Counted from the first letter of the stretch, positions 1 to 15,428 are shown. The stretch: DNA of 64,000 nt from Synechococcus sp. (GCA_047285535.1 JBJBDC010000001.1:512136-576135); one strand, 5' to 3'. The notes: generated by a model not told the origin, from the sequence alone. Program-made: numbers and translations.

Positions 1-1
1 A

Positions 2-1558
2 CAAATCAGTTTGATTCTGGTCGTTGCGGGAGTCACCCGGGTCTGTTTTGAATGGATCCAAAGTCGGGCTGTTCAACTCAGTCAGCAGCGAGGTGCGGCC
101 CGCTCTCAACTTGCTGGCATGCATCGATTGCTGCGCTTGCCAAGTGAGTTTTTTCGCCTACGCAATATCGGCGATCTCCAACTGCGTTTCGGAGCCCTCG
201 ATCAATTACGTGGCGAAATTCAACAGCTGCTTGAGGGTGGTCTTCTAAGGCTGGTCCTCACCAGCATCTACATCCTTTTCATGCTGCGTATCAGCGTGAA
301 GTTGACGGCATTAGCTCTCGTTGTTTCAGCTCTGATCCTGATACCTACAGCTCTCATCGGCTTGCAATCAAGGCCCCTGCAACGCCATCAAGAGGAGGCA
401 GAAGCTCAAGCGCAGAGCCGAAATCTAGAACTGATCGGTTCCGTCTCCAAACTGCGTCTGGCCGGTTCCGAGAGTGCAGCTGCTCGTTGGTGGGGCGCAG
501 AATTCCAAAAAATTGTCTCATTGGAAAATGCCCTTGATGCCAAAGAAGCCAGTGCTTCCCTCCTGAATGCTGTGATGCCCAATCTCGGCACCTTGTTGGT
601 GTACGTGGTGGTGACTCGTCTGATTGCAGAAGCTGCTAGCACGTCAAGCCTGGACGCCCCCAATGTGGGTCAGTTGCTTGGATTCTTTTCTGCTTTCGGA
701 ACCTTTATCGGTGCATCAGCAGGGTTTGCGGGTCTGCTCATCGGCGCTTTTGACATGCCGGTGATCTACGAGCGCGCCAGACCGATTCTCGAAACCAATC
801 CTGAAACTACGGAATTTCGAGATGAAGCAGGCCTTTTGGAGGGTCGAATTCAGCTCGATCGTGTTCGCTATCGCTACTCCCAAGAACTGCCATTTGCGTT
901 GGATGGGGTGAGCTTTGAAACTCATCCAGGAGAAATGCTCGCCATCGTCGGGCCATCTGGCTCCGGAAAATCGACAATTGTGCGCTTAATACTCGGTTTT
1001 GCTAATCCCGAAGATGGTGAGATCCGTTTCGATGGCCAACCCCTTAACGGCCTGCGACTGGACAGCGTGCGCCGCCAGATTGGGACAGTTCTCCAAACCA
1101 ACTCCCTGTTTGGCGGCACCCTGAAAGAAGCGATTGCTGGAGGTAGCCTGATCGAAGAGCAGGAGGCCTGGCACGCAGCAGAGCTTGCTGGTCTAGCAGA
1201 TGAAATTAGAGCCATGCCAATGGGACTCCAAACCGTAGTGAGTGACGGTGGAGGAACCCTTTCTGGTGGTCAACGACAACGCGTCGCCATCGCGAGAGCG
1301 CTGGTACGTCAGCCACGAATTCTGATCTTCGATGAAGCCACCAGCGCCCTGGACAATCGTACTCAGGCCATTGTTACTAAGAGCCTCGAATCATTGGCGA
1401 TCACTCGTCTCGTGATAGCTCATCGCCTCAGCACAGTCCGTCGTGCGGATCGAATTGTGGTGCTAAACGAAGGGCAGGTCCTTGAACAGGGCACCTGCGA
1501 CATGTTGATGCAACGCAAGGGCTTGTTCTTTCGAATGATGCAGCGCCAGATCACATGA
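2..1558 (+). CDS. NHLP/NHLM bacteriocin-type export ABC transporter, permease/ATPase subunit (5'-truncated by window)
   Basis: TM region followed by Walker A GPSGSGKST, signature LSGGQRQR and Walker B LIFDEATSALD. Frame is open back to the window edge. Adjacent to the HlyD and C39-ABC genes. Confidence 0.85.
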   Translation, partial: QISLILVVAGVTRVCFEWIQSRAVQLSQQRGAARSQLAGMHRLLRLPSEFFRLRNIGDLQLRFGALDQLRGEIQQLLEGGLLRLVLTSIYILFMLRISVKLTALALVVSALILIPTALIGLQSRPLQRHQEEAEAQAQSRNLELIGSVSKLRLAGSESAAARWWGAEFQKIVSLENALDAKEASASLLNAVMPNLGTLLVYVVVTRLIAEAASTSSLDAPNVGQLLGFFSAFGTFIGASAGFAGLLIGAFDMPVIYERARPILETNPETTEFRDEAGLLEGRIQLDRVRYRYSQELPFALDGVSFETHPGEMLAIVGPSGSGKSTIVRLILGFANPEDGEIRFDGQPLNGLRLDSVRRQIGTVLQTNSLFGGTLKEAIAGGSLIEEQEAWHAAELAGLADEIRAMPMGLQTVVSDGGGTLSGGQRQRVAIARALVRQPRILIFDEATSALDNRTQAIVTKSLESLAITRLVIAHRLSTVRRADRIVVLNEGQVLEQGTCDMLMQRKGLFFRMMQRQIT

Positions 1559-2676
1559 GCCTCTTCCGTAAGAACGCGTTAGATCATCTCTCTAGTCCGG
1601 AGAAACTCGATCAACCTCTTCGCCTCCTTCGTCCCGGGCAATGGTTGCTATTGCTCTCCCTGGGTGGTTTCTGCATCACGATCACCATCTGGGCGGTGTT
1701 TGGACGTCTCCCGGTCCGTATCAGCGGCAAAGGATTATTGATCCGCTCCAATAGCCTGACGGTGGTGCAGAGCGAGGCCGCAGGACGGATCCTTGAGCTG
1801 AACTTCACCATCGGTGATTGCGTGAAGCGTGGGCAGCTGATGGCTCGTATCGATCCTGTTTCCCAGGAAATCAGCAAAAAGGAAGCGGAAATGCAGCTGG
1901 ATCATTTGATCAGCCAGGACCAGCAGGAAGATCACCTTGGAGCGATCCGTATTCGACAGCTACGAGCAGAAATTTCCCGGATCGCGAAGTTGACCCAATC
2001 CGGCGCGATCTCTATCGATCAATTGAGTCAGCGCCAGAAAGAATTAAGCGGTTTGGAGGACTCTCTTGAAGCTCGTGATGGTCAGCGTGAACAGCAGATC
2101 AAACAGCAGGAGGCACGCATCAATGCCCGCAACGAGGAGATCGAGCGTATCGCTCAGATCAGGGCGCCGATCGATGGCTGTGTCATCGATCGAAATGTGC
2201 ACCGGGGTGAGGTTGTCCAGCCTGGTAATACGTTGTTCACCTTAGAGACAGGTTCTGGACAGACCCCGCTAGAAAGCTTGGCTTTCTTTCAAGCTGGGGA
2301 CGGCAAACGGATCAGCATCGGGCAGAGGGTGCGCATCAGTCCCACCAGCACCAATCAGCAACGCCATGGCGGCATACAGGGCCAAGTGCTCAGCGTGAGG
2401 CGCTTGCCGGTGAGCGATAAGGCGCTGATAAAACGCCTTGGTCTGGAGTCTCTCTTAGATGCTGTGCGCAGTGAACAAAAGGGACCACTGATCGAGGTGA
2501 AGACCTCTCTAGAACGTGATCCAACGACCGTGAGCGGCTACGACTGGGGTGGAAGTGTAGGGCCTGACTTGACGCTCACTACCGGAACACCAACCAATGT
2601 GAGGGTATTAGTTGAGGAACGGCGACCGATCAGTTACGTCATCCCAATTATGAGAGACCTAACGGGCATCTACTGA
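1555..2676 (+). CDS. NHLP bacteriocin system secretion protein (HlyD-family membrane fusion protein)
   Basis: Characteristic N-terminus FRKNALDHLSSPEKLDQ, single TM, coiled coil, IRAPIDG lipoyl half-motif, C-terminal RPISYVIP. ATGA overlap with the upstream gene. Confidence 0.88.
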   Translation: MSLFRKNALDHLSSPEKLDQPLRLLRPGQWLLLLSLGGFCITITIWAVFGRLPVRISGKGLLIRSNSLTVVQSEAAGRILELNFTIGDCVKRGQLMARIDPVSQEISKKEAEMQLDHLISQDQQEDHLGAIRIRQLRAEISRIAKLTQSGAISIDQLSQRQKELSGLEDSLEARDGQREQQIKQQEARINARNEEIERIAQIRAPIDGCVIDRNVHRGEVVQPGNTLFTLETGSGQTPLESLAFFQAGDGKRISIGQRVRISPTSTNQQRHGGIQGQVLSVRRLPVSDKALIKRLGLESLLDAVRSEQKGPLIEVKTSLERDPTTVSGYDWGGSVGPDLTLTTGTPTNVRVLVEERRPISYVIPIMRDLTGIY

Positions 2677-4823
2677 TGGAGCGAACTCCCACCGTTCTGC
2701 AAATGGAGGCCACCGAATGTGGAGCGGCCTCGCTCAGTATCATTCTTCAGCACTATGGTCGCTATGTCCCGCTTACTCAATTAAGGGAGCTTTGTGGTGT
2801 GTCGCGCGACGGCACGGATGCGGCCAATCTGATTCTGGCCGCACGCACATTTGGACTCGAGGCTAAGGGCTTCCAAAAAGGTCTATCGACCTTGGAAAAG
2901 ATGAAGGCCCCCGCCATCCTGTTTTGGGAGTTCAATCACTTTTTAGTCTTTGAAGGATTCAAAGATGACCGTGTCGCTCTTAATGATCCCGCACTAGGTC
3001 CGCGGACCGTGTCTCGAGAAGACTTCGATCGGAGCTATACAGGCATTGTTCTGACCATGGAACCTGGGCCCGAATTTGTTCGGGGTGGTCAGGCTCCATC
3101 CTTTTGGCCCATCGTGCGCCGACGGCTCACGAGTGAGCCGTCAGGTGTTCTTTTCTCCCTGATCGCTGGACTGCTGTTGATCCTTCCCCAACTGGTAATG
3201 CCCATTTATGCCCAGATCTATTTAGATGAGGTGATCGGTAACAGCATGAACCAATGGCTCAAGCCAATGCTTTGGGCTATGGCCTTAACCATCGGTTTAC
3301 AGGTTGTGCTGAAACATCTGCAACTGATCGGCACCAGGAGACTGGAAAAACGACTCACACGCCGTTTTTCGATTGGCTTTGAACACCAAATCCTGGCTTT
3401 GCCAGAAAGGTTTTACAGCCAGCGTCATGTTTCTGATATTGCAGGGCGGATGCAAATCAACGCCAACATCGCTGAATTCATAGGAGGGCGATTGATTCCA
3501 GTTGTCACTGGATTGGTTTTGCTGATCTTTTATTTGATATTGACTTTCCTCTACAGCCCATGGCTTGGATCCCTGATTCTTGGCAGTACAGCCATTAATG
3601 CGATAGCAGTACGGCTCAATCTGCGAGCGCAGAAGGATGCCAGCCTCACGATTCAAAAAGATGCAGCAAAAAGTAGTTCAGTGGTGGTCAATGCCATGCG
3701 GGACATCGAAACCATCAAGGCTGCCGCAATCGAGCAGGACGTTTTTCGTCGGTTTGCTGGCTATCAAAGCCGATTGCTGAACACGCTTCAAGATCTTCAG
3801 CTTCGTAATGCGAAGTTGCGGCTCATTCCGAATGCCCTCACCACTTTCAACGAAGTGACGGTTCTGCTGCTTGGCTTTTTGCTCGTGATTCGCGGTCAGC
3901 TGACTTTAGGCATGCTTCTTGCCGCCCAAACGATTGCCTTCAGCCTGAAAGGCCAACTTGAAAGTGTGATTGGTTTTGTCCAGCAGCTACCCGAATTTGA
4001 AGCAGGTGTTCTGCGATTAGAAGATGTTCTCGAGCAACCTCGTGACCCACTGTTGGAGAGTGATCCTGAGTTGATTCTCAACTCCAAACGTTCTCGGTTG
4101 AGCGGGGCTATTGAAATTCGTGACCTCAGCTTTGGCTTCGTAGCGATTCAACCACCGTTGATCAAAGACATTTCTCTATCCATTCAACCAGGCATGCGAA
4201 TCGCTCTTGTTGGTGGGAGTGGAAGCGGTAAAAGCACCCTGGCGAAATTGATTGCTGGCCTACACCAGCCCAGTGGGGGAGAGATTCTTTTCGATGATCA
4301 AACTCTTCTCACAATCCCAAGAGCCGTTGCGGTGAGTTCCCTTGCCATGGTTCAGCAAGAGATTCAACTCTTCGGATGCAGTGTTCGTGACAACCTTACC
4401 CTTTGGAACCAAGCAATTCAAGAAAGAGATTTGCTGGAAGCTTGCCGAGATGCGGAGATTCTTGATGTGGTTCGAGGACTTCCCGATGGACTCGACACTA
4501 TTCTTTCTGAAGGTGGACGGAACCTTTCAGGGGGGCAACGCCAAAGACTTGAGCTTGCTCGTGCGCTTGTAACCAATCCAAGCATTTTGATCATGGATGA
4601 GGCCACCGCTGCTTTAGATGCTGATACAGAGCAGCGCGTCATCAGCAATCTACGTATGAGGGGGTGCACTCAAATCATTGTTGCGCACCGGCTCAGTACG
4701 ATCAGAGATGCAGATCAGATCCTTGTGATGAAGCAAGGACAAATCATTCAACAAGGAACACACGAAGAATTATTTAATGATCAATCTGGTCCTTACGTTC
4801 AACTTTTAGAGGAGGTTGTCTGA
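2676..4823 (+). CDS. NHLP/NHLM export ABC transporter with C39 peptidase (peptidase/permease/ATPase)
   Basis: C39 motif QMEATECGAASL (Cys), FNHF (His), NDPA (Asp); TM domain; GGSGSGKST; LSGGQRQR; DEATAALD. Confidence 0.9.
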   Translation: MERTPTVLQMEATECGAASLSIILQHYGRYVPLTQLRELCGVSRDGTDAANLILAARTFGLEAKGFQKGLSTLEKMKAPAILFWEFNHFLVFEGFKDDRVALNDPALGPRTVSREDFDRSYTGIVLTMEPGPEFVRGGQAPSFWPIVRRRLTSEPSGVLFSLIAGLLLILPQLVMPIYAQIYLDEVIGNSMNQWLKPMLWAMALTIGLQVVLKHLQLIGTRRLEKRLTRRFSIGFEHQILALPERFYSQRHVSDIAGRMQINANIAEFIGGRLIPVVTGLVLLIFYLILTFLYSPWLGSLILGSTAINAIAVRLNLRAQKDASLTIQKDAAKSSSVVVNAMRDIETIKAAAIEQDVFRRFAGYQSRLLNTLQDLQLRNAKLRLIPNALTTFNEVTVLLLGFLLVIRGQLTLGMLLAAQTIAFSLKGQLESVIGFVQQLPEFEAGVLRLEDVLEQPRDPLLESDPELILNSKRSRLSGAIEIRDLSFGFVAIQPPLIKDISLSIQPGMRIALVGGSGSGKSTLAKLIAGLHQPSGGEILFDDQTLLTIPRAVAVSSLAMVQQEIQLFGCSVRDNLTLWNQAIQERDLLEACRDAEILDVVRGLPDGLDTILSEGGRNLSGGQRQRLELARALVTNPSILIMDEATAALDADTEQRVISNLRMRGCTQIIVAHRLSTIRDADQILVMKQGQIIQQGTHEELFNDQSGPYVQLLEEVV

Positions 4824-4899
4824 TGGTTTTCATTCAGCCTGTTCCTGCTGCATCGAATCTGGGAAAAACTATCCCCCAGAGCCCTGCCTAAGGATCCAG

Positions 4900-6350
4900 G
4901 CGAATCTGCTCAGCATCTTGACGATTGTCTCTTTGTTACTGCCAAGTGTCTGATTGACTCATCAACTTCCGCCTCCACCGTTGAGTCTTTCCTTGATCGT
5001 CTCGCTGATGATTCTCATCCTCACTTTGAGGGTGATGTAGTTGAAGAACATACCTGTGCTTGCTGACCCAATCTCTACGTACATCGATCAATCGTCTTGG
5101 GCTGTTCAGTGTCGTAGGACTCTTCAGCTGGTCATTGTTGTTTCTTCCTTCTGAACTGGGTTGTGGAAAACCATCACAAAAATTGTCCAAGACTTCTTCA
5201 GTTTGGTGGTTGCAACGGCAATCACCCTGATTGTGATTGACCGAGATTTCAAGGTTGATTTAGCTGGACTTGCTGCGACCTCAACATTCATCACCGAGGT
5301 TGTCGCTCTTTCTGTCCAAAAAACACTCAAACCTCTCTCTGCCGCTGTTTCTCTTCCGGTTGACTCCTCTTTTGATCAGGGCGGCTGAATCGACTTAGCC
5401 TTCACCCGTGGCATAGGCATTCCTCTGCGTCGGATGTCGAGCGCTGACGCACCAGCGAGGTCTACATCACCGTCTTGCCAATGAGATATATCTCCTTCGA
5501 AGGCCTCCGCCGAACTAAGTCATCAGAGCCTTGCGTCTGATCTTCGAGATCGGATGGACTGCAGCCTGCTCAGTTCCAAGCCATCGAGCTCCTCAAACGC
5601 GCTGATGAACAACAGAAAGGTGTACATGGTTCCGGCTTCAATGCTTTGGCTCAGAAACTTTGAAGACATCACTCTTGTCTAAAAAATCCGCACCTGGTAG
5701 GCCTGGCCATGGAGCAGCACCAACGGTGCACTGATCTGATCGAGCCAATCTAATACTGCCTTCAACGTATCAACTCAGTGAATACCTTTGCCCATCCCCG
5801 ACTTTCAAGTAAAGGCCTCAACAGCAAAGTTTCTATCGAAAACGTTAAATCGGCAGTGCCTTCAATCCTTTTTAGTTCAAGTCAAACTTTTTAGTCAGTT
5901 CACACCGATCAGCTCCTTCAACACGCTAAGCCAGCTTGCCGCAAAAGTTACGATCCTGGTCAGCGTGTTATAAGCCAAGCTGAATAAGGCAACAGTCTTT
6001 TGATCGTCATGGGCGCAAGCCTCGATGTCATGCGCAATACACCCCAAGGAGGACTTGTTCTGGTGAACACTCTGACGTGGGCTGCTGTCTTGGGTGAAAT
6101 GGTTTTATGCAAGGGTGCACCGGGATCAGCCAATGCAATTTGGAACGTGAAGTGTGTTCTGCTCGACATTCAACGACTACATCTGATCCAACAGATAGAG
6201 GAGAACCCTCAGAATCTTGAGACGATGGGCACTCTTATGGCTCATCGTCGGCAAACTTTGCAATCGATTAGCGAAGAGAGGGCTGAAACTCGAATCCAGA
6301 CACTCATCGGCTGCATTCAGTCTCTCCAGACAAGCATGGGGCAATCATGA
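4900..6350 (+). pseudogene. Decayed MscS-family mechanosensitive channel with C-terminal cyclic-nucleotide-binding domain
   Basis: Fragments stitched across stops and frameshifts: HQLPPPPL; KIVQDFFSLVVATAITLIVIDRDFKVDLAGLAATSTFITEVVALSVQKTLKPLSAAVSLPVDSSFDQGG*IDLAFTRG (MscS pore helix and PFxxGDWI region); EGLRR; QAIELLKR; NNRKV; LIEPI*YCLQRI; then the cNMP-like LGEMVLCKGAPGSA...LLDIQR in ORF 6000-6350. Confidence 0.8.
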
Positions 6351-8233
6351 AGCTCTGGCTCCAGCGCTTAGCGCCGTATGCCTTCGCAAGCGCGCTGCTG
6401 CTCGGACTTCAATACTCACCTGCTGTAGAGCCATTCAACTTGCTTGTCTACGATCTTGTGAGCACCTTGCGTGGCAGGTACTCGCCTCAACTTCCGAATG
6501 ACATCGCAATCGTTGCGATCGATGAGGCCGAAATTGATCGCTACAACTGGCCGATAGCTGATTCCTATCTCTGTGATGCAATCCGCCAATTGGATTTACT
6601 TGATGTCAAAGCGATCGGTTTGGATCTCTACCGAAACCAGAGCATCCCAACCTCTGACCGCTGCCTAAGTCAACTCGTAGCCGATAACCCCCGACTGATC
6701 TCTATTCACAACATTGCAGAATCAATTCCAGCCATTCCTAATACTCCAGCTCAACAACAGGCATTCAACGACATCGTTGTGGATGCGGATCGGGTGGTAC
6801 GTCGCGATTTGGTTCACGTTGGCGGACAGGACAAACGCACACGTTCCTTACCTTTACGTCTTTTAGAGACAGCACGCCATGATCACAATCTGGCTGAACG
6901 ACTTGAAAGCATGGAGTCGTCCATCTGGTTAGAGCCAGGATCTGGCGGTTATCAGCGTCTGGATTCTGCTGGTTACCAAACAATGTTGGCTGTCTACCCA
7001 TCAAGCCGATATCCCATCATTGGTTTACATGATTTCCTCAATGGGCGGTATGACCCTGACCAACTTCAGGACCGAATTGTTCTAATTGGAAGCACTGCTG
7101 CCTCCCTCAAAGATCAATTTGAGATTCCCAACAGTCGTTGGCATCAGGGTGATCGATTTCTTGAGCTGCCTGGGGTCGAGATCCATGCTCAGAGATTGGA
7201 ATCATTGCAAAACCTCTTACTTCATAACCAGGCCCAGATCCGTGTGGCCTCACCTCTACATCGTCTACTTTTGTTGGCAGCCATGGTTCTTTTAGGCATT
7301 GCCTTGGCAGAACGTCCGTCAGGAATTCGACGAAGTGCTCTTCTGCTTGTTCTGTGTGGATGCACCCTCATTGGTGCCGTGGTCATGGTCCTTATTCAAG
7401 GCATCTGGATTGGTGTTGCGATGCCCCTGGCTGGTCTGATTGTGTTTGGCAGCAGCGGCATTCTGAGGCGAGGGGCTATCAGTCAGAACCATCAAAAAGA
7501 GATGCGCCAACTTCTCGGTCAAGCGACTTCACCAGCTGTCGCACAGCAGCTATGGAACCAGCGTACAGAGCTCATTCAGGACGGACGCTTCACTGGTAGA
7601 GAGCAATTAGTGACAATTTTATTCAGTGATATTTGCAACTTCACTCAGGTGTCAGAGCAACTCAGCCCAGCAGAGTTGATCAATTGGTTAAATCAAGGGA
7701 TAGCGATTGGTGTTGATGCGGTCACCAGCCATGGGGGCATGGTGAATAAATTTACCGGGGATGGAATGCTCGCCGTTTTTGGTGCACCTGTCTCCGCTGG
7801 TAGTGAAGTTGAAGCTCAGCAAGCACTCGCCGCTGCAAAGGCTATTCAGGTTGCAATTTTTAATCTGAATCAAACCCTAATGTCCCGAGGTGAATCAACG
7901 TTGCGTCTGCGAATTGGCATTCATTCTGGAAAGGTTATCACTGGATCAATCGGTAGTCGTGAGCGGCTGGAGTACGCCGTTATTGGAGATACGGTGAACT
8001 GTGCATCTCGTTTAGAGAGTTTCTGCAAGGAAAACAACCAAGGATTTGTCCGCGTTCTGGTCTCTTCTACTACTCTTCTTTTAGCTGGAGAAAGTCTTCA
8101 TCAAACTAACTTGAAGGAATGGGGGCTAATTAATGTTAAAGGGCGCCAAGAACCCCTGATAGCCTTTGAACTGATGACTCAAGATTGTTTTAGAAACACA
8201 TCACAGGCACCTCCTGAGGCCACTGAGAATTGA
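6347..8233 (+). CDS. CHASE2-domain class III adenylate/guanylate cyclase
   Basis: CHASE2 motifs IAIVAIDE, YNWP, IGLDLYR, DADRVVRR, IVLIG, PGVEIHAQ; three TM helices; cyclase motifs ILFSDICNFT, KFTGDG, RIGIHSG, GDTVNCASRLE. Confidence 0.92.
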   Translation: MKLWLQRLAPYAFASALLLGLQYSPAVEPFNLLVYDLVSTLRGRYSPQLPNDIAIVAIDEAEIDRYNWPIADSYLCDAIRQLDLLDVKAIGLDLYRNQSIPTSDRCLSQLVADNPRLISIHNIAESIPAIPNTPAQQQAFNDIVVDADRVVRRDLVHVGGQDKRTRSLPLRLLETARHDHNLAERLESMESSIWLEPGSGGYQRLDSAGYQTMLAVYPSSRYPIIGLHDFLNGRYDPDQLQDRIVLIGSTAASLKDQFEIPNSRWHQGDRFLELPGVEIHAQRLESLQNLLLHNQAQIRVASPLHRLLLLAAMVLLGIALAERPSGIRRSALLLVLCGCTLIGAVVMVLIQGIWIGVAMPLAGLIVFGSSGILRRGAISQNHQKEMRQLLGQATSPAVAQQLWNQRTELIQDGRFTGREQLVTILFSDICNFTQVSEQLSPAELINWLNQGIAIGVDAVTSHGGMVNKFTGDGMLAVFGAPVSAGSEVEAQQALAAAKAIQVAIFNLNQTLMSRGESTLRLRIGIHSGKVITGSIGSRERLEYAVIGDTVNCASRLESFCKENNQGFVRVLVSSTTLLLAGESLHQTNLKEWGLINVKGRQEPLIAFELMTQDCFRNTSQAPPEATEN

Positions 8234-8804
8234 TTACATCTTCAAGTCCAAAGAGGAGTTTGATTTTGGAAAGTGGGACTTTCGAATCGCAGGTTAGTAG
8301 CAATTCCTTAAGTTGATCTTGAACTGCAGAATCAATGAGACGCGACTCATCGACAAGCAGACTCTTGGCTGGTGGACTCTCCACACCGATAAAACCAAAT
8401 TCGTCACCAGCTTGTGATTCAGCACACCTATAGGCTGATTCCCAGACTATTGGAAATAGTTGAGTCTGGAGAAGTCGCAACAGCACAAGTCGGGGACCTG
8501 AAGAGACAATGGACCGCATGAAAACAGGTTTGTTCCGCTTGAGAAGCGAAATTTCAATTGGTTTGGGATCTCTAGACGGCCCTTCGAGCCAACCAATCAC
8601 GCCTTCTTTCCCTGGCGCAAACACACTCGACTCTGGAACCAGGTGAACGATTAGACGCGAAACGCATTCTCCTCGCGTTCCTCCGCCAACCCTTCTGCCA
8701 GGAAAGCTATTACGAGACTGGGACCAGCTCTGCTCAGGGTGAATGCCTGTTCCCAGAACCATTAAGGCTGCAGACGTCACAATGGAGCGAATGGGCGAGA
8801 TCAC
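8190..8804 (-). CDS. DUF928-like exported protein
   Basis: Signal-peptide-like N-terminus followed by PGRRVGGGTRGEC, typical of DUF928. Lies between the CHAT and CHASE2 genes. Confidence 0.7.
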   Translation of the reverse strand: MISPIRSIVTSAALMVLGTGIHPEQSWSQSRNSFPGRRVGGGTRGECVSRLIVHLVPESSVFAPGKEGVIGWLEGPSRDPKPIEISLLKRNKPVFMRSIVSSGPRLVLLRLLQTQLFPIVWESAYRCAESQAGDEFGFIGVESPPAKSLLVDESRLIDSAVQDQLKELLLTCDSKVPLSKIKLLFGLEDVINSQWPQEVPVMCF

Positions 8805-8875
8805 GGCAGGATTTCGACTCTATGGCTGCAGAATGCCCCGATCTTTAGCAATTGGCCTTGATTTCGGTCATTTTC

Positions 8876-8897
8876 AAATGTGATTCAGATCACAAGC
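8876..8897. promoter_or_regulatory. CRP (cAMP receptor protein) binding site
   Basis: AAATGTGATTCAGATCACAAGC versus consensus AAATGTGATCTAGATCACATTT. Perfect TGTGA-N6-TCACA at 8879-8894, in the 106-bp gap upstream of the DUF928 gene. A crp gene lies about 6 kb away. Confidence 0.8.
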
Positions 8898-8910
8898 GGC
8901 ATAAAGACAA

Positions 8911-11900
8911 TCACCAGGGAGAACCAAGTAATTCAATTCCAGCCCAGAAAAAGGGATTCTTCACACCTCTTTTGATGCGCTGACGTTGAGACTGATCAAG
9001 ATCTTGAAGTAAAGGCTCTCCACCATGTCCAATGACCTCATCACCTTGGAGATAAACAGATCCCAGAGCAAAGATCTGACGCGTGCGTAGTAAAGCTTCT
9101 GCCTTGGAAGCCCCTTCGGCAAGAAAGCGATAAAACTGAACAAAGAAAGCCGATGTCACGACATCATCGACGTACCAAAGTGTGCCAATTGCACTTTGGG
9201 AGCCTGCCTGTAGAGCTAAACCTGCGAATCCCAACTCACTCTCTTGATCTCCAAGCATGGTGCGACAGGCACTGAGGACCACGAGATCAAGGGGATGATT
9301 ACGACGTTGTCGACGTAGTTCCGCAAAATCGGCCATCGACATCGGTCCCTGCCCTGTGTGTAAAACAGATTTTGTTCGACCACCTGGTCGAAAATCGGCA
9401 TGGGTGGCGATGTGGACGCGGGAATAACGCGGATCACTGGCACGATCGAGCAAGGTTTGCGGTGTGAACGCGTCGTCTAGATATCGATCGGTGCTGGAGG
9501 TGTCCTGAATCTTGTTGAGCTCCTGCGGAACCAGGGGAAGAGGGGCCATTGTCTCAAATTCAGAAGCACCCATGGCAAGAAGTCCTTGGGAGCCATTCGA
9601 AGCACTGAGGTCGGTTAGCGCCAAAGAAGGAGAGAGGGCGAAACCATAACGTTCTCCGAAATATTGAGCGCCATCATTTAAAGCTGAGAATGGTACGGCT
9701 TGGAGACCCTGATCGGCTGCAATCAAAAGGGTTGTGATGTCATGTGTGTCCAAACTTGATTGAACCGGAGCAATCAGAAGATCATGCAATTGCCGAGACG
9801 GCGACATAGGGTCGTTGACCTCCAGTGATTCTTGACGGGACAACTGTCGATAGAGATCTTTCAGAAGTTCAGCAAAGCGTGCTCTTGAGATCTCAACACG
9901 CTTGGCCTGAACGACACCTTCAGGAGGAACGAAGGTGAGATCCAGAAATCCCGTTTGAGCATCGGTAAAACGCACCTGCAACACAGCTGGGACCAGGGCT
10001 TTTCTTCCTGGCTGTTGCTGTTGCACTTCACGTAGCGATTGCTGAATCTGCGACACTGATGGAGTTTCCGGAGCAATGCCATTGAGGCTTTCCTCCAGGT
10101 CAAGGGCTGCCACCGTGCGAAGGGTTGCCTGACCATCTGATTCCTGTAGTTGCAGCGCTGCCTGATCTTCTGGGAGTTTCAGCGGAACAGAAGCCCTAGA
10201 CCCCGTTGGGTTCTGAGTTTGGGGGGACACAGCAAGCATCCCACTCGTTTCACCAAAATTGACCACGACGGGAATGGAGTTGTTGGAGGATTCAACACCG
10301 ACAACCTGACCATTGGGCAGGGTAGAACTCTGATCAATAAGAGGGGCTTGGCTTTGGTTCTGCTGGATAGTTTGGAGAAGGGCTACCTCTGCCGATGGAT
10401 CGAATCCAATCAATCGCTGCGAACGATCGTCATCTTGACGGGTCACATCTGAATCCATTTCAGGGGGCGATTCTTTTGTGGGTATTGGTTCAGGTGTGGG
10501 TGTTGGTGTTGAACTACAAAGATTGGATGATCCACCTCCCGAACAAGTTGCAGAAGTAGGCGATGACGACAGCACATCGAGAGAACCCTTTTTTACAAAC
10601 GTCTCACCGGTGTAGGTAATGGTTGCAGATGGGGAGAATTGGAGGGTTCCATCACCTTCTTTGATGAAGTCGCCATTCCCAGAGATGGCAGCATCCCAGG
10701 TGAGAGTTGAGGCTGATCCCCTTACATCGATTGCTCCCCCACCAGAATTCAGCAGGAGTTCAATGTTGTTGACTGCTTCAGTGGCATCACGACGCAATGT
10801 TGCTCCATTAAGAATGATTTGTGGATTGGAGGCACCGCCTATAACTTCAGCTCCACTTGCTTGGTCGAACCAAATGATGCTATCCCCGGTCGCGATGAGA
10901 CGTTGAACGAAGAGCGTCTCTTGAAATCTTGCTGTACCTGGGCCGTTATGAAGTAAATCTCCGAACATGATGGTGCTTTGTCCATCACGAAGATTGATCG
11001 GTCGAGTGAAAAATACATCACCGGAACCTTCCAATGACAAGTCCGAATTAAACGCTGTAGAGGCTGCTAAGACCGATACAGAATTACCAGTCGTCGGATT
11101 GAGATTGAGCTCACCTTGTGTCATGTCAACAGTTGAACTGCCGTTCAGCGTCAACGTTTGCTTCAGTGAATTGTTCCCGGACCAGTTGCGTAGAACGCCA
11201 CCCTCCAACACCACAGGCTCGTCCAAAGTGATGTCGCCACTCAGCTCCAAAGTGGCTCCAGCTTTAACTGTTGTGGGAATGTTGCTTGCTCCTAAAGCGT
11301 TGGAATTGGTCACACGTAGTGCTCCTGATTCGACCGTGACCTCACCAGACCAGCCGGCATTATTCCCCGACATAATCAAACGTCCATGTCCTGATTTGGT
11401 GAGATCACCACTTCCTGATAGCGTCGATGCCAACGCCTGAGAGCCATAAGTAGGTGTTCCGATCTTGGAGTCACCAGTGGAAACATGGAGTGGGCCGTTC
11501 AGGATTAATTGGCTACCGGACGCTCCCTCTACAAAGCCGGCTCCAGCATTAAGATTCAGCCCTCCGCTACCCGTAGTGATATCAGAGCTGAGTTGGATAT
11601 ACCCTGATGCATCAAGCGTAAGCACGGTTGTTGCTGTGGAGTAATTGAGATCGGCACCCGATGCCCAAGTGATGTTGCCGCCTTGTGTGGGATCTCCATT
11701 TCCCGTAAGAACGCGAACATTATTTCCATCATCCACAAGTGATTGTTTCAACGCTTGCTCATCAACCGTTGATGCGCTGACTGTCGAAGTAAACAGCACA
11801 TTGCTATTGCTACTGCCACTTGGATCAGCAGTGATTGTTCCCGTGACGTTGCTGATCGTGATATTAAATGGATCCAATAACCACTCACCTGCCAGCCCAC

Positions 11901-12924
11901 CTACCGAGCTGACATCCACCCGCTCAGGATTGGCAATGAGCATTGCTCCAGAGGTTTCAACCCGCCCACCATCACCCCCTAGCGGCCCACCCATCGCAAG
12001 GAATGTGCCTTCTGCGACTGTGCCGCCAGACGCGTGATCCAGATCACTCCAGATCACAATTGTGCCGCCATTCCCTTGTCCGGTCGAGGAGGCATTCACC
12101 AAGGAACCAGGCTGCATCCACGTTTGCAAGGCCTGACGCACCGTTTGGTCACTGTTTTGCCAGCTTCCGCCAATGAGGACCTCCCCACCATTCTCCCGAC
12201 CCGTGGCCAACAGCCGGGTCTCGGCACCTACCTTGATCAGATCCGCAGACAGTGCAATCGAACCTCCATCACCGAAGTCATTGCTTGCGGATAACTGACT
12301 GGCTTTGATGTCGATGCGCCCTTCCGGTGCATCGATCAGTAAACTCTCCTCCACATCAAGATCAATACCCTCCATACGAATCCAGGGTCGATCGTCTCCA
12401 TTTCGAGAGCCATGGAGTCCAAGACTTCCAGAGAGTGGATCACTATCCAAGGAAGAAAGGCCAGCCTGATGTGTCTTGAATACATCGAAAACCCCACCGG
12501 GGAAATGAAGTTCACTAGCCGTGCTTAAGGTCAGTTGAGGAATTTGCAGAAACCTGGCACCGGGCATCATCTGAATGCCACCCGGTGAAAGCACAAATAA
12601 ATGGGACGGTGCAGTGAGTGAAATTGCTTTGTCAATGAAACTGCCCTCAGCAGCGGTGACACCCAACACAAGATTCTGAATGCCATCGCTCTGAATCTCT
12701 ACACCACGAATAGCTCCGCGGGTGTCGAAGTGACTCAGCCGGTGAAAGCGATTACGTCCTGAATCAATTCCGCCATCAAGATGGCATACCCCGGTCTTGC
12801 AACTCCCCCCCATGACCCCATTAACTCGGGTCTGAAGCCCTGGCCCTGCCTTCACCTCAGCACGAACATTGCCGGCCTGGATCGACGCCAACAACAAAAG
12901 CAATGGCAGTCGTAGCCTTTTCAT
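8911..12924 (-). CDS. TpsA / filamentous-haemagglutinin-like exoprotein with C-terminal CHAT (caspase HetF-associated) protease domain
   Basis: Signal peptide; TPS-like domain (NRFHRLSHFD, LFVLSPGGI); GNGGTIVIWSD / GGRVETSG / WLLDP; PATR-like repeats (LTKSGHGRLIMSG, FIKEGDGTL); PT linker; CHAT motifs VPFSAL, HIATHA, LVVLSAC, GTLWYVDD, PFFWA. Confidence 0.88.
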   Translation of the reverse strand: MKRLRLPLLLLLASIQAGNVRAEVKAGPGLQTRVNGVMGGSCKTGVCHLDGGIDSGRNRFHRLSHFDTRGAIRGVEIQSDGIQNLVLGVTAAEGSFIDKAISLTAPSHLFVLSPGGIQMMPGARFLQIPQLTLSTASELHFPGGVFDVFKTHQAGLSSLDSDPLSGSLGLHGSRNGDDRPWIRMEGIDLDVEESLLIDAPEGRIDIKASQLSASNDFGDGGSIALSADLIKVGAETRLLATGRENGGEVLIGGSWQNSDQTVRQALQTWMQPGSLVNASSTGQGNGGTIVIWSDLDHASGGTVAEGTFLAMGGPLGGDGGRVETSGAMLIANPERVDVSSVGGLAGEWLLDPFNITISNVTGTITADPSGSSNSNVLFTSTVSASTVDEQALKQSLVDDGNNVRVLTGNGDPTQGGNITWASGADLNYSTATTVLTLDASGYIQLSSDITTGSGGLNLNAGAGFVEGASGSQLILNGPLHVSTGDSKIGTPTYGSQALASTLSGSGDLTKSGHGRLIMSGNNAGWSGEVTVESGALRVTNSNALGASNIPTTVKAGATLELSGDITLDEPVVLEGGVLRNWSGNNSLKQTLTLNGSSTVDMTQGELNLNPTTGNSVSVLAASTAFNSDLSLEGSGDVFFTRPINLRDGQSTIMFGDLLHNGPGTARFQETLFVQRLIATGDSIIWFDQASGAEVIGGASNPQIILNGATLRRDATEAVNNIELLLNSGGGAIDVRGSASTLTWDAAISGNGDFIKEGDGTLQFSPSATITYTGETFVKKGSLDVLSSSPTSATCSGGGSSNLCSSTPTPTPEPIPTKESPPEMDSDVTRQDDDRSQRLIGFDPSAEVALLQTIQQNQSQAPLIDQSSTLPNGQVVGVESSNNSIPVVVNFGETSGMLAVSPQTQNPTGSRASVPLKLPEDQAALQLQESDGQATLRTVAALDLEESLNGIAPETPSVSQIQQSLREVQQQQPGRKALVPAVLQVRFTDAQTGFLDLTFVPPEGVVQAKRVEISRARFAELLKDLYRQLSRQESLEVNDPMSPSRQLHDLLIAPVQSSLDTHDITTLLIAADQGLQAVPFSALNDGAQYFGERYGFALSPSLALTDLSASNGSQGLLAMGASEFETMAPLPLVPQELNKIQDTSSTDRYLDDAFTPQTLLDRASDPRYSRVHIATHADFRPGGRTKSVLHTGQGPMSMADFAELRRQRRNHPLDLVVLSACRTMLGDQESELGFAGLALQAGSQSAIGTLWYVDDVVTSAFFVQFYRFLAEGASKAEALLRTRQIFALGSVYLQGDEVIGHGGEPLLQDLDQSQRQRIKRGVKNPFFWAGIELLGSPW

Positions 12925-13035
12925 TAAGGCACCAAATCAAACATAGGAGATGCATTTCAAATAAACAGCACTTAACCCTAGGCATGCTTCTCCAGACTTA
13001 CTAATCTTCGCGTGCATTAATCGTTCCACGCCTTC

Positions 13036-14712
13036 ATGCTGCTGCTTTTGGCGCAGTTGGTTGCTCCGCCACTGCAGCCCGGTCCCGTTCGTATCCCGGA
13101 ACCAGTTCCAAAAGAGCAGTTTCCGTCTCCTCCTGTTGACCAGGTTCCTCTTGATCCAGAATCACTTCAGTTGCCTCTCAAAGCCCAGCCTTCAAAACAA
13201 AAGGGGGGACCGACAGCTCCTTGGCGACCAACGATCGAAGGATCCGCTCCCTACAGCTCCGATGAACTTTCAGATATTCTCAGCATCTGTTCTAAGAGCA
13301 GTTCAGCCCTCCGTCTGCAGAGCTGCGCTGAAGCGATCACAGCACGTTTACAACTTGACGGCTACGTCAACTCACGGGTTTTTGTGGAGGAGGAACCGTC
13401 CCCTGGTCGTCTTGTGGTGGTGACGGGTCGATTGGTTGAACTCCAGGTCGAGGCGAGCACTCCTTCTCTAGAACAACGTGTTCGAGCAGCTCTGTCCAAC
13501 CTTATTCAGGAGCCATTACAACTTCCAGTACTGCAATCACGACTTCGCCAACTCAAACAGCAGAATGTGGTAGGCAGCATTTCCGGAACTCTGGGGAAGT
13601 TGGGAAGCGATCCCACTCAAGGTGTGCTTCGTATCACTGTCACCGCACCGATGCATCCATGGCGGGGCGATCTCAGTTTGCGTAATGATGGCAATGCTGG
13701 GAGTGGTGAATGGCGAGCCATAACGATTTTGCAAAAACAGAATATTTTTACCGATGGTGATCTGTTGCAACTTTATGGAGAAGGGAATGTGGATAGTGAC
13801 CCTGAATTTGGTGCAGCTATTGGCTCGCTCAGCTATACCTTTCCTCTTGCCAGCAATGTCAACTTCACTGGTTCGTTTGGAGCCAGTCGCCGCAATTTTG
13901 TAGAAGTCAGTGGACTGGCCCATGGCTTGAGCTTTCGTCAATACCAAGGGCTAGGCCAACTTCAATGGACCTTTGCAGAAAATGTTCACCACTCTTGCTA
14001 CGCCTTTGCGGGACTCAGCTCGAATCACAAAAATAGCTATCTCAATGATCAATCCTTTCCTCTGATCATTGGTGGCGGTCTTGATGGTGATCTCACAACC
14101 GGCTATCTACGCTTCGGGCTCGGTAATGCAGGACGATATGGCTCTTGGTCGTGGTCTGGACAGGTTTATGGTCTCCAGGGCCTTGCCGGTTTCAGCACAT
14201 CCGATGAGTTAAGCAATTTGGCCTTTTTTGGTGTGAATCCAGGCGAGTCAAGGGCTCTCGGCGGAATCATGACAAATGGATGGTCCCTAAGCAGAACCCT
14301 TCAACTCTCCTTGAGGGTTGCTGGACAGATTTCCTTCAATGAACTCACTAATGATATGGGTTTTTCCCTGGGCAGTGATACAGGACTCCGTGGTTTACCG
14401 GGGTCGTTGATCAGCGGAGACGATGGCTGGCTCGCAAATACTGAATTCAGCTGGACCTTTTGGCAAAAGGATCAGAACGCCTTGCAATTAGTGCCTTTTT
14501 TGGGCATCGGAGGCATCTCTACTCGAAGGGACGACATCACCATTTCGGACACGATCGGTTCAGGAGGAATGTTGCTCCGATGGCTCAATGGACAACATTG
14601 GAATGTTGAGCTCGGCTGGATAGACCAGTTCAATGCAGAAAACAACATTGGCGTATGGAACGACTGGATTCTCGGCAGCGGGCTTTATGGGAAGGTGAGT
14701 TTTCGTTTCTAA
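13036..14712 (+). CDS. TpsB (ShlB/FhaC/HecB-family) two-partner secretion outer-membrane transporter
   Basis: POTRA-like GYVNSRV, amphipathic beta-strands, loop motif LRGL (VRGY-like), C-terminal Phe. Divergent from the TpsA gene. Confidence 0.8.
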   Translation: MLLLLAQLVAPPLQPGPVRIPEPVPKEQFPSPPVDQVPLDPESLQLPLKAQPSKQKGGPTAPWRPTIEGSAPYSSDELSDILSICSKSSSALRLQSCAEAITARLQLDGYVNSRVFVEEEPSPGRLVVVTGRLVELQVEASTPSLEQRVRAALSNLIQEPLQLPVLQSRLRQLKQQNVVGSISGTLGKLGSDPTQGVLRITVTAPMHPWRGDLSLRNDGNAGSGEWRAITILQKQNIFTDGDLLQLYGEGNVDSDPEFGAAIGSLSYTFPLASNVNFTGSFGASRRNFVEVSGLAHGLSFRQYQGLGQLQWTFAENVHHSCYAFAGLSSNHKNSYLNDQSFPLIIGGGLDGDLTTGYLRFGLGNAGRYGSWSWSGQVYGLQGLAGFSTSDELSNLAFFGVNPGESRALGGIMTNGWSLSRTLQLSLRVAGQISFNELTNDMGFSLGSDTGLRGLPGSLISGDDGWLANTEFSWTFWQKDQNALQLVPFLGIGGISTRRDDITISDTIGSGGMLLRWLNGQHWNVELGWIDQFNAENNIGVWNDWILGSGLYGKVSFRF

Positions 14713-14735
14713 CCTCTGTTTCGCAAGAAGATTGT

Positions 14736-15428
14736 TTAGTCGAGCAGTCCACGCTTCTGGAGCGGCTGTAGATCCACAATGCGCAAACCACCATTTTCTT
14801 CGACAATGACCTTTCTCTGGCGAAGCTTGCTAAGGGTGCGGGACGCCGTTTCCCGTGCAAGACCAGCCAGTAATGCGAGCTCTCTCTGAGCAAGGGAGGG
14901 AATCAAAGCCTGAGGGTCACTTGCTGGACCGGAACTTTTCTTGGCGAGATAGGCCAAAGCATCCAGAAGACGGGATGTGGCATCACCACTCTGAAGAGCG
15001 AATCTTCGATTGAGATCACGTAAACGCTCAGCCTCTAAGCGAGCAAGCCTTAGTGCAAATCCAGCTTGTTTATTTAGAAGCGCAGCAAAGGGTGCCACCC
15101 GAAGCTTGACCAATTTCAATGATGTCAGCGCGACCACATCAGCTGAACGTGCCGAGCCATCGAGGGCTGCCATCTCTCCAAAAAGATCCCCCTCTCCGAG
15201 CAACGACATCACGATCTCTTCACCATCAGCGGTGTAGGTACGCACCTTAGCCAGGCCGGACCGCAATAAAAACAAAGATTCGCCCCAGTCCTGTTCCATC
15301 ACAATCACCTGATCGGGATGATGACCAGTTTCACGATGCCGATCAAGAATCTGATCCAGCTGATCATTCGTAAGGTCCTCGAATAAGGTCATGGACTGAA
15401 GTTCATCGCGCATTGCAGGAGATGTCAT
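14736..15428 (-). CDS. crp: Crp/Fnr-family regulator, cAMP receptor protein-like
   Basis: cNMP pocket FGEMAAL...RSADV. HTH GLARETASR keeps the R-E-x3-R DNA-contact residues of CRP. Confidence 0.85.
   Translation of the reverse strand: MTSPAMRDELQSMTLFEDLTNDQLDQILDRHRETGHHPDQVIVMEQDWGESLFLLRSGLAKVRTYTADGEEIVMSLLGEGDLFGEMAALDGSARSADVVALTSLKLVKLRVAPFAALLNKQAGFALRLARLEAERLRDLNRRFALQSGDATSRLLDALAYLAKKSSGPASDPQALIPSLAQRELALLAGLARETASRTLSKLRQRKVIVEENGGLRIVDLQPLQKRGLLD

Follow-up and report, generated by a model that had tools for sequence, protein, structure and literature searches.

A conserved CHASE2 cyclase and CHAT protease gene set of small cyanobacteria with a probable role in relaying a cell-surface signal

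Introduction

The closest described counterpart of the locus analyzed here is the NsrA-CyaK/CyaD1/CyaD2-Clr system of Sinorhizobium meliloti, in which, according to the consulted sections of the reports, a proteinaceous signal acts through an outer-membrane protein to activate a CHASE2 membrane cyclase, and which likewise comprises a CHASE2 cyclase, a CRP-family regulator encoded at the locus and a boxed target in the same locus (PMC13001267, PMC7529298, PMC4222275). In Campylobacterota, gene clusters that pair a CHASE2 adenylate cyclase with an outer-membrane protein bearing a FecR domain have been reported, again with a dedicated exported partner in the part of the preprint considered (bioRxiv 10.1101/2022.03.11.484041), and MtxA, which is encoded beside a CHASE2 cyclase, is described in the consulted part of its report as having an Ig-like domain (PMC4439547), as is predicted for one of the proteins discussed below. 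CHAT proteases are known from several signaling contexts. In the consulted account of Myxococcus xanthus DdvA, a periplasmic CHAT domain forms part of a signaling chain across the envelope, as is proposed here (PMC11506125), and Csx29/Craspase, SAVED-CHAT, separase and HetF (PMC9457339) share the protease fold and His-Cys dyad of our protein and perform signal-controlled cleavage of one dedicated substrate. On the output side, the SyCRP1 and AnCrpA/B regulons use the same TGTGA-N6-TCACA box that we found, with a patchy distribution of crp in marine picocyanobacteria, as far as the consulted text goes (PMC2633013).

Here, we analyzed a stretch of 64,000 nucleotides from Synechococcus sp. (GCA_047285535.1 JBJBDC010000001.1:512136-576135; hereafter the window) together with related loci and genomes. 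Its core consists of four genes, encoding a CHASE2 cyclase, a remote DUF928 relative, a TpsA-CHAT protein and TpsB. This gene set is conserved in small marine and freshwater cyanobacteria and probably relays a cell-surface signal to a membrane cyclase whose product is most likely cAMP.

Results

The features of the locus are listed in Table 1. All six components named by the first-pass annotation, as well as the perfect CRP box, were recovered where it had placed them. Its labels for the CHASE2 cyclase, CHAT, TpsB and CRP could be retained, whereas those for DUF928 and TPS have to be softened, as neither is backed by a direct Pfam match. Scans for sigma-70 promoters and terminators gave counts at or below chance.

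Table 1 Features of the locus (positions are those of the window)
Feature	Position	Strand	Remarks
NHLP-type peptide exporter: ABC2 end, HlyD, C39-peptidase ABC1	1-4823	+	neighbor, outside the core
MscS-cNMP channel pseudogene	about 4890-6350	+	3' end overlaps cyclase start by 4 bases
CHASE2 + class III nucleotidyl cyclase	6347-8233	+	628 aa; Pfam CHASE2 1.5e-45, Guanylate_cyc 1.9e-25
DUF928-like gene, predicted exported	8190-8804	-	204 aa; 44-base overlap with cyclase 3' end
Second, degenerate CRP-type site (TGA-N6-TCA core)	8857-8872	-	22 bp from main box, toward DUF928-like gene
Perfect CRP box TGTGA-N6-TCACA	8879-8894		16 bases past tpsA stop, 74 bases upstream of DUF928-like start
TpsA-like protein with C-terminal CHAT	8911-12924	-	1337 aa; Pfam CHAT 5e-51, residues 1042-1334
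TpsB (ShlB/FhaC-type) outer-membrane transporter	13036-14712	+	Pfam ShlB 1.4e-14
CRP-family regulator	14736-15428	-	230 aa; cNMP 1e-19, HTH_Crp_2 7e-12

The occurrence of the core genes was examined in related loci. A CHASE2 cyclase was located within 1.5 kb of the DUF928-like gene in 77 of 80 loci, and the 39 long loci contained CHASE2 (39), TpsB (37), CHAT (35) and a TPS N-terminus (35), with gene order and orientation varying among loci. In a panel of 28 genomes, all 12 that possess the DUF928-like gene also have a TpsA-type CHAT and a CHASE2 cyclase, and the remaining 16 lack a CHAT gene at a locus of this kind, so that the DUF928-like gene and CHAT are both present or both absent; these counts were taken among kin, and a single block inherited whole could give the same pattern. 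The four genes have stayed together through inversions and relocation to another chromosomal site. In other cyanobacterial families, true DUF928 genes likewise adjoin CHASE2, TPS or TpsB genes. The recurrence of CHAT, DUF928 and CHASE2 genes put forward in the first-pass annotation is borne out by the tight co-occurrence of the four core genes, whose catalytic residues are also conserved, and it seems fairly likely that the four core proteins belong to a single pathway operating upstream of the cyclase.

The surrounding genes behave differently from the core: crp, MscS-cNMP, FecR modules and the NHLP exporter come and go in the region. All six parts occur at one locus in only 7 of the 39 long loci, two panel genomes (G013 and G152) have the core without this crp, and in five others crp adjoins another CHASE2 cyclase, one whose partner is FecR-like. 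Independent assortment, which had been named as grounds for abandoning the circuit, applies to crp and not to the four core genes. A second CHASE2 cyclase with a FecR-like partner is also encoded in this genome, and it could drive the same regulon through the same CRP. These findings, together with the dead channel gene of this genome, do not support a self-contained six-part circuit, and CRP is a shared output rather than one dedicated to the core. In a CHASE2 tree of 38 rows, DUF-partnered and FecR-partnered domains were split with a support of 100, this being a quick tree from which a length filter removed the more divergent FecR-partnered domains.

The metal-binding Asp pair, the Asn/Arg residues, the membrane segments and the CHASE2 domain are all present, which places the protein among CHASE2 class III nucleotidyl cyclases. 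D428, N551 and R555 were conserved in 70/70 homologs, K468 in 69/70, and D472 is conserved as well. ATP-specific cyclases carry a base-selecting pair of Lys plus Thr/Asp. The second base-selecting position is Ala544 here, with Ala in 68/70 and Gly in 2/70. The predicted product is most likely cAMP, and since the second position is Ala rather than Thr/Asp, cGMP or a mixed output would be possible.

The 204-aa protein has a signal-peptide-like N-terminus, a predicted Ig-like beta-sandwich and four conserved cysteines. Pfam and NCBIfam scans yielded no family for it, and DUF928 (PF06051) was not matched above cut-off by this protein or by any homolog (0/87). Remote homology to DUF928, spanning the N-terminal motif and the beta domain, emerged when profiles were compared (124 columns, probability 98.1, E 8e-14), and Atlas row 12 gave DUF928 at 0.85, which we take as a lead only. 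A PGRRxGGGTRGxC motif is near-invariant (Arg38 in 87/87, Arg44 in 85/87), and its second Arg was also found in 20/20 true DUF928 proteins. A fold search with the model yielded no Foldseek match at E<=0.001 (best Z 6.9) and generic Ig-like matches only; MtxA (4Z29) was not among the matches listed, and its likeness to our protein consists in an Ig-like domain, which in our case is predicted. Co-folding with CHASE2, which had been proposed as a check, gave a score of 0.36 against 0.02 for the best control. In the benchmark, 116/157 solved and 2/215 mismatched pairs attained this mark; with the score limited to 0.60 or less, it was attained by just 18 of the solved pairs, together with the two mismatched ones. 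The score was thus above the controls, but contacts agreed in 2% between runs (partner pLDDT 73-74), and the models hint weakly that the DUF928-like protein may be a direct CHASE2 partner.

The TpsA-like protein consists of a signal-peptide-like N-terminus, a divergent TPS domain, a repeat passenger matching PATR, a Pro-rich linker and the C-terminal CHAT. Pfam TPS gave no direct match in the N-terminus, and the TPS assignment (PF05860) comes from a profile match to a Pfam-TPS protein (probability 87, E 4e-6). The transporter matched ShlB above and POTRA_2 below cut-off (E 0.009), and searching the genome with this query turned up no second one. The CHAT dyad, His1175/Cys1220, is invariant in 50/50 sequences. 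No match to the PDB was obtained for the CHAT region by sequence search, whereas fold search matched Csx29, DdvA and separase (E 1.7e-13; DdvA E 3.6e-11), as well as SAVED-CHAT. On the basis of Pfam, the dyad and the caspase-hemoglobinase fold of the model, it is a clan CD protease with predicted activity. A TPR array as in TPR-CHAT proteins (HetF/Csx29/DdvA) was not found in TpsA-CHAT, which has the TPS-like domain and PATR repeats instead. The ratio of dN/dS was 0.08-0.21 across folded regions, and CHAT is among the best conserved parts. The DdvA dyad mutants had no phenotype under the conditions tested, according to the consulted part of that report (PMC11506125), and a conserved dyad is therefore no proof of routine cleavage.

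The arrangement of these genes could also be read as contact-dependent delivery, in which TpsA puts CHAT into the periplasm of a neighbor, the DUF928-like protein serves as inhibitor or immunity protein, and the complex of protease and inhibitor is sensed by CHASE2, so that the protease of another cell, not the cell's own, would serve as an alarm or kin signal. The order tpsB, tpsA and small gene resembles that of cdiBAI, with the DUF928-like gene directly following tpsA in most loci, and both the strict 12/12 co-occurrence with CHAT and a CRP-induced inhibitor, which would form a sensible negative feedback, fit such a scheme. The polymorphic C-terminal domain of CdiBAI is replaced, however, by a conserved CHAT (42-78% identity among 49 loci) that ends all complete tpsA copies except one tandem copy without CHAT. 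At some loci, CHAT genes are short or passenger-less, or tpsA is split ahead of CHAT (L100, L115 and G117), and the DUF928-like gene adjoins CHASE2 more tightly than CHAT (77/80 vs 52/80 loci). We therefore regard delivery as quite unlikely.

In a second alternative, which we consider rather improbable, CHAT would only mature or shed the surface filament, the DUF928-like protein and CHASE2 would form a receptor for another ligand, and the TPS pair would be a co-inherited output or neighbor. TPS proteins are commonly processed, many true DUF928 loci have CHASE2 and no CHAT within 1.5 kb, and the sole physical support, the weak co-fold, concerns the DUF928-like protein and CHASE2. Yet the TpsA-type CHAT and the DUF928-like gene are never apart in the 28 genomes, CHAT is retained where the passenger has been shortened or lost, and no CRP box was found in the tpsA/tpsB divergent region (nor upstream of crp or the exporter), which speaks against the pair as an output.

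The regulator contains a GE...RSA nucleotide cassette and an RETxxR recognition helix and was accordingly assigned to CRP; its best NCBIfam model was CRP, below the equivalog cut-off. Twenty-two perfect boxes were found genome-wide, where an expectation of about 2.7 was calculated and other spacings gave 0-9, whereas the window alone contained 3 boxes at <=1 mismatch against 3.6 expected, that is, at chance level. The other perfect box of the window, at 50456, falls inside a coding frame, has no second site and was regarded as a chance occurrence. For 15 of the 22 boxes, a second site was located exactly 22 bp away, compared with 0-2 at other offsets. A TAN3T element 21-23 bp downstream was present for 1/22 boxes, showing no enrichment and differing from the promoters in the consulted part of PMC2633013. 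The palindrome could also have been a terminator hairpin of tpsA; this was rejected, as its flanks are variable, it is not followed by a run of T, and the layout recurs ahead of unrelated genes. The box precedes the DUF928-like gene in 12/80 loci and in 0/32 long loci lacking an adjacent crp. Feedback on this gene, as suggested by the first-pass annotation, is thus plausible, since the box belongs to the predicted CRP regulon and faces the gene, but it appears to be lineage-specific rather than general.

The number of perfect boxes follows the presence of crp (median 10 in 16 crp-positive vs 1 in 12 crp-negative genomes), with only 2 boxes each in two crp-positive genomes (G041 and G052). This trend argues against the view that no single pathway exists, that is, that cNMP and secretion genes have merely gathered in a variable island (speA-alaS in most relatives, recG-sir in this genome) and the boxes ahead of CCRG-2 genes were carried along when promoters were duplicated. 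The mobility of crp, MscS-cNMP, FecR modules and the exporter would suit that view, as would one perfect box retained in G016, which is crp-negative and cyclase-negative. The cohesion of the four core genes through rearrangement does not, and the arms of the box are retained around a variable 6-bp spacer, with the paired layout also found upstream of unrelated genes. We hold this explanation to be very unlikely.

CCRG-2 double-glycine peptides have been described as co-culture responsive. All five CCRG-2 genes of this genome have a box ending 89-100 nt upstream of the start. The CCRG-2 leader motif (NF033456) scored above cut-off in 3 of the 5 boxed peptides scanned, with 5 matches genome-wide. 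Among 30 HMM-picked loci elsewhere, a box at 89-100 nt was present in 18, vs 2/120 control windows and 1/30 Nif11 genes, and these 18 loci are not independent because their promoters are homologous copies. HMM-picked loci replaced an earlier count (25/31), which was biased by regions chosen for boxes. In one genome (G104), none of 6 CCRG-2 loci had a box at <=1 mismatch. Since Nif11/prochlorosin-type genes lack the box, the regulon does not extend to all leader peptides. From these promoter statistics, CRP probably controls CCRG-2 genes. The literature searched, the original CCRG paper aside, contained no paper on this link and no statement of a CCRG-2 regulator or of a stimulus for the cNMP subunit of the exporter. 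The first NHLP exporter gene, just left of the window, encodes a double cNMP-domain protein (TIGR03896), a subunit present in 8/29 genomes, all crp-positive. The exporter models TIGR03794/03796/03797/03896 were matched above cut-off, save TIGR03797 just below it. The adjacent exporter is a candidate for the regulated peptides, and no more than that, because the genome has four matches to C39-type exporters.

The MscS-cNMP gene is a decayed pseudogene overlapping the cyclase start, as annotated at first. The remnant spans three reading frames with frameshifts and in-frame stops, and its DNA shares 66% identity with that of an intact relative (gaps at 27 of 1499 positions); intact genes in relatives encode 488-497 aa. 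A channel driven by cAMP, as had been supposed, may thus exist in relatives, but is dead in this genome.

Discussion

Our data lean toward a trans-envelope cyclic-nucleotide relay of the NsrA-CyaK-Clr kind, with a TPS/protease/adaptor input and a secreted-peptide output. TpsB would export the TpsA passenger as a surface filament, with CHAT staying in or returning to the periplasm. Contact or damage might then activate CHAT or alter its grip on the periplasmic DUF928-like protein, which, as the co-fold weakly suggests, may bind CHASE2 directly and set cyclase activity. The cyclase, judging from its sequence, would make a cyclic nucleotide, most likely cAMP, and genome statistics point to CRP acting on paired TGTGA-N6-TCACA sites of genes for exported products, chiefly CCRG-2 and small secreted proteins, with the DUF928-like gene itself as a putative target in one marine lineage. 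Such an input would be modular, as the FecR-partnered second CHASE2 clade may feed the same CRP, and the MscS-cNMP channel would be an optional further output that this genome has lost.

A more specific version, a counterpart of protease-activated receptors, is unlikely but worth stating. Upon contact, sensed by the TpsA filament, CHAT would cut the PGRRxGGGTRGxC motif of the DUF928-like protein at Arg, the new end would be the CHASE2 ligand, and cAMP-CRP would switch on CCRG-2 arrays while cNMP tunes the exporter. Arginine specificity of CHAT is suggested by an invariant Trp-Tyr-Val-Asp-Asp segment together with separase chemistry. If true, this would be a neighbor-sensing and peptide-response circuit of picocyanobacteria and, via DUF928 (found in 125/151 class genomes), a general cyanobacterial receptor mechanism.

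For the relay as a whole, the questions of the CHASE2 ligand, the role of DUF928 and the substrate of an exported CHAT are reduced to four proteins in culturable picocyanobacteria, and the boxed promoters offer a ready reporter for the locus. The link between CRP and CCRG-2, if true, names a regulator and a second messenger for co-culture-responsive peptides, and would mean that CRP has a definite function in marine Synechococcus and Prochlorococcus; it would also explain the cyclic-nucleotide-binding subunit on the NHLP exporter.

Compared with known systems, the predicted regulon differs from those of SyCRP1 and AnCrpA/B, for which the consulted text, site tables aside, names no CCRG-2/double-glycine targets or paired 22-bp sites (PMC2633013). 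Csx29, SAVED-CHAT, separase and HetF are all cytoplasmic, and none is fused to a TPS passenger or tied to CHASE2. DdvA is, in the consulted account, a single inner-membrane protein with TPR that releases an ECF sigma factor (PMC11506125), whereas CHAT here ends TpsA, lacks TPR and would act on a cyclase. For the Campylobacterota FecR clusters and MtxA, the consulted parts of the reports describe no protease or TPS pair, unlike the present locus. With respect to NsrA-Cya-Clr, the outer-membrane part, there an NsrA-type single-chain beta-barrel receptor, is here TpsB and a TpsA filament with a caspase-like protease, to which a DUF928-like adaptor is added, the predicted targets are CCRG-2 peptides and linkage to an MscS-cNMP channel is common; that system has its closer structural analog in the second, FecR-partnered cyclase of this genome.

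Composition and conservation of the cassette

The block lies in a complete genome of 3.03 Mb whose relatives are Synechococcus, Cyanobium and Prochlorococcus, and is flanked by an NHLP peptide exporter on one side and a D-Ala-D-Ala dipeptidase gene on the other. All six parts named in the first-pass annotation, that is, the four core genes (CHASE2 cyclase, DUF-like, TpsA-CHAT and TpsB), CRP with its box (TGTGA-N6-TCACA) and an MscS-cNMP channel gene, could be found as described (see table). The cyclase carries a CHASE2 domain and hydrophobic segments at about 298-373; its catalytic residues (D428, D472, N551, R555 and K468) were kept in 69-70 of 70 homologues, and the second base-selecting position was Ala in 68 of 70. 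Compared with a single relative (G006), for which dS is near saturation, dN/dS was 0.08-0.21 in the folded regions of the five intact genes and 0.39 in the TpsA linker. The channel gene is broken at many places in the source genome, so it cannot serve there as the working output that had been proposed.

Features of the locus, the source genome (G000) and compared genomes (G) and loci (L)
Feature	Position	Strand	Remarks
NHLP exporter	window 1-4823; G000:C1:509873-510967		double cNMP-domain subunit (TIGR03896); directly adjoins cassette, likewise in G005, G015, G104, G117
MscS-cNMP gene	~4890-6350
CHASE2 cyclase	6347-8233	+
DUF-like	8190-8804	-	exported, 204 aa
CRP box	8879-8894
TpsA-CHAT	8911-12924	-
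TpsB	13036-14712	+
crp	14736-15428	-
AT-skewed region	23674-43865		lower GC (0.40-0.47 around 28-34 kb), strong skew, several ORFs; looks like a separate island
Tandem genes	G000:C1:2029777-2031715		boxed 167-aa secreted-type gene, three identical copies; related boxed gene in G024
Repeat-rich gene	G000:C1:2039948-2042252		752 aa, RTX-like-looking, box 31 nt ahead, near second cyclase; similar genes at this site in G002, G003, G024
Second CHASE2 cyclase	G000:C1:2045218-2049529 (L002)		flanked by stand-alone cNMP protein and 630-aa exported FecR-like gene; Thr where the window's enzyme has Ala
Further cNMP-domain genes	L019:647-3784; L020-L023		close to cassette
Tandem tpsA	L020:1-3897 (G011)		copy without CHAT upstream of complete gene
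Calpain-family protease gene	L150:6197-8209 (G117)		boxed (89 nt); 635 aa with PPC domain; adjoins CHAT gene

The 204-aa protein does not reach Pfam DUF928, and matched a 20-member DUF928 profile with a probability of 98.1; in its model (pLDDT 86.5), a conserved Arg/Gly motif precedes an Ig-like sandwich. Co-folding of CHASE2 (22-303) with this protein (27-204) scored 0.36 against 0.02 for the best control. The runs (0.36, 0.00 and 0.40) shared 2% of contacts, and by the method's own counts a pass of this kind is weak.

In TpsA-CHAT, His1175 and Cys1220 were both present in all 50 CHAT domains compared from related loci (two from another, short CHAT gene), and the modelled C-terminal 400 residues (pLDDT 85.5) match Csx29, DdvA and separase. 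Complete copies range from 1292 to 2215 aa (n=35) and shorter or split forms occur at some loci; thus, the filament varies and the protease does not. A rival explanation is that the protease only processes the filament and has no role in signalling. At L115, L103, L100 and L150, tpsA is split ahead of CHAT, or the passenger of CHAT is largely or wholly missing, and the catalytic residues are retained; L069 has tandem tpsA copies, both CHAT-bearing.

Occurrence of the cassette and crp

DUF-like relatives were sought in one genome per species, and the best 80 of 134 loci were analyzed. A CHASE2 cyclase lay within 1.5 kb of the DUF-like gene at 77 of these 80; it was 5 kb off at two others, and the third contig was only 3 kb. 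Among the 39 of these loci whose flanks both reached 9 kb or more, we found CHASE2 at 39, TpsB at 37, CHAT and the TPS N-terminus at 35 each, MscS at 34, FecR-like at 25 and crp at 7, and all six parts together at 7. We also examined 28 whole genomes (the source, 17 congeners and 10 further members of the family; eight genus genomes, 56-82% complete, were excluded and one at 70% retained). The DUF-like gene occurred in 12, always with linked CHAT and CHASE2 cyclase, and two others had only long, unrelated CHAT genes. This crp (E<1e-50) was present in 16 genomes. Ten of these have the core; five lack it, and there crp adjoins a different CHASE2 cyclase and a gene of FecR-like type; in the last one, no CHASE2 was found. 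Two genomes carried the core without crp.

Core and crp thus assort separately and crp also accompanies the CHASE2/FecR-like pair. The unit is accordingly an input module of four genes, which on gene content is predicted to be one of two kinds feeding a common CRP. The circuit is therefore not self-contained as first claimed: the four core genes travel together, crp separates from them, and the proposed chain is plausible for these genes plus CRP. One rival reading is simple clustering in an island. Most relatives carry the cassette close to speA and alaS, whereas in the source genome the second cyclase occupies that site and the cassette is elsewhere. Nine loci with non-cyanobacterial titles (L065, L066, L067, L071, L082, L089, L092, L109 and L136) show the typical picocyanobacterial cassette and speA/alaS context, and are probably mis-binned or mis-titled records rather than transfers. 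In relatives, additional cNMP-domain genes lie close to the cassette (L019 and L020-L023); they comprise a second MscS-cNMP-like gene and a conserved cNMP protein of 477-491 aa.

Of three FecR-like genes scanned, two gave a Pfam FecR match, of which one exceeded the cut-off; the source copy had an Atlas lead (0.90) and no Pfam match. In a quickly computed tree, 38 CHASE2 domains separated into 7 with a FecR partner and 31 with a DUF partner (five of the latter being neighbours of DUF928 in other families), a single split among kin and not a co-evolution test.

Predicted CRP regulon

The source genome has 22 perfect boxes, compared with about 2.7 expected, and 17 fall outside long frames, which make up 70% of the genome. 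Crp-positive genomes had a median of 10 boxes (2-30) and crp-negative ones 1 (0-6), these being kin and so not independent. A second TGA-N6-TCA core lay exactly 22 bp away in 15 of 22 boxes, and at any other offset of 16-39 in at most 2. The window's box has its second core on the DUF-like side (6/6 vs 1/6), so that the site points to that gene.

A pattern scan of the whole source genome detected six small double-glycine-leader genes (two of them duplicates), five of the CCRG-2 family. All six had a box with 0-1 mismatch ending 89-92 nt ahead of the start (as background, 33 of 3000 randomly drawn 300-nt windows); products of other boxed genes have signal-peptide-like starts. The CCRG-2 model found 51 places in 6 of 161 family genomes. 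Among the 30 taken as loci, 18 had a box ending 89-100 nt upstream, compared with 2 of 120 shifted windows (source 5/5, G117 5/5, G211 4/6, G015 3/6, G104 0/6, G016 1/2), and three unboxed loci belong to tandem arrays and closely follow a boxed copy. Crp was present in five of the six genomes; neither crp nor cyclase was found in G016. Nif11 genes had a box in 1 of 30 (of 91 places). The cNMP-binding exporter subunit TIGR03896 occurred in 8 of 29 genomes, every one crp-positive. This predicted peptide regulon opens the system to direct testing.

In CCRG-2 promoters (L174-L201), a conserved GATGGTGTG-like element some 45 nt past the box may be an alternative-sigma promoter, and a short hairpin (GGAGG...CCTCC) ahead of the start may exert translational control. 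The 1.9-Mb genome G117 (L166-L169) has 22 perfect boxes, 17 inside 85 kb around the cassette, and single boxes there separate divergently oriented genes for double-glycine peptides of two different types, at about 91 and 80 nt from the respective starts.

Proposed mechanism and known systems

Sequence establishes domain content, conserved catalytic residues, co-occurrence and box statistics. In the signalling order that we propose, the filament would act through a periplasmic CHAT protease and the DUF-like protein on CHASE2, the cyclase would produce cAMP, and CRP would activate rather than repress. The same parts might instead form a delivered protease and immunity system that is read by CHASE2.

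The system is real and conserved, and apparently undescribed in print. Apart from PMC5587647, which mentions neighbouring CHASE2 and DUF928 genes in passing, no account was found in the literature on CHASE2/CHAT/DUF928/TPS and periplasmic CHAT, most subscription papers lying outside coverage; the accessible part of PMC2853523 names fusions of caspase with CHASE2 and does not include this system. With the same coverage, no CRP-CCRG-2 link was found in the literature on picocyanobacterial CRP and CCRG, including the accessible parts of PMC2633013, PMC10783134, PMC8120280 and PMC5974335; the original CCRG paper or the PMC2633013 supplements may already note the motif. CHASE2 cyclases with exported partners have been noted (bioRxiv 10.1101/2022.03.11.484041; PMC4439547), DdvA is a periplasmic CHAT sensor (PMC11506125), and the closest system in logic is NsrA-CyaK/CyaD-Clr (PMC13001267, PMC7529298, PMC4222275). 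We conclude that the system is, as predicted from its genes, a variant of CHASE2-cAMP-CRP envelope signalling in which a TPS protein bearing a protease would provide the input.
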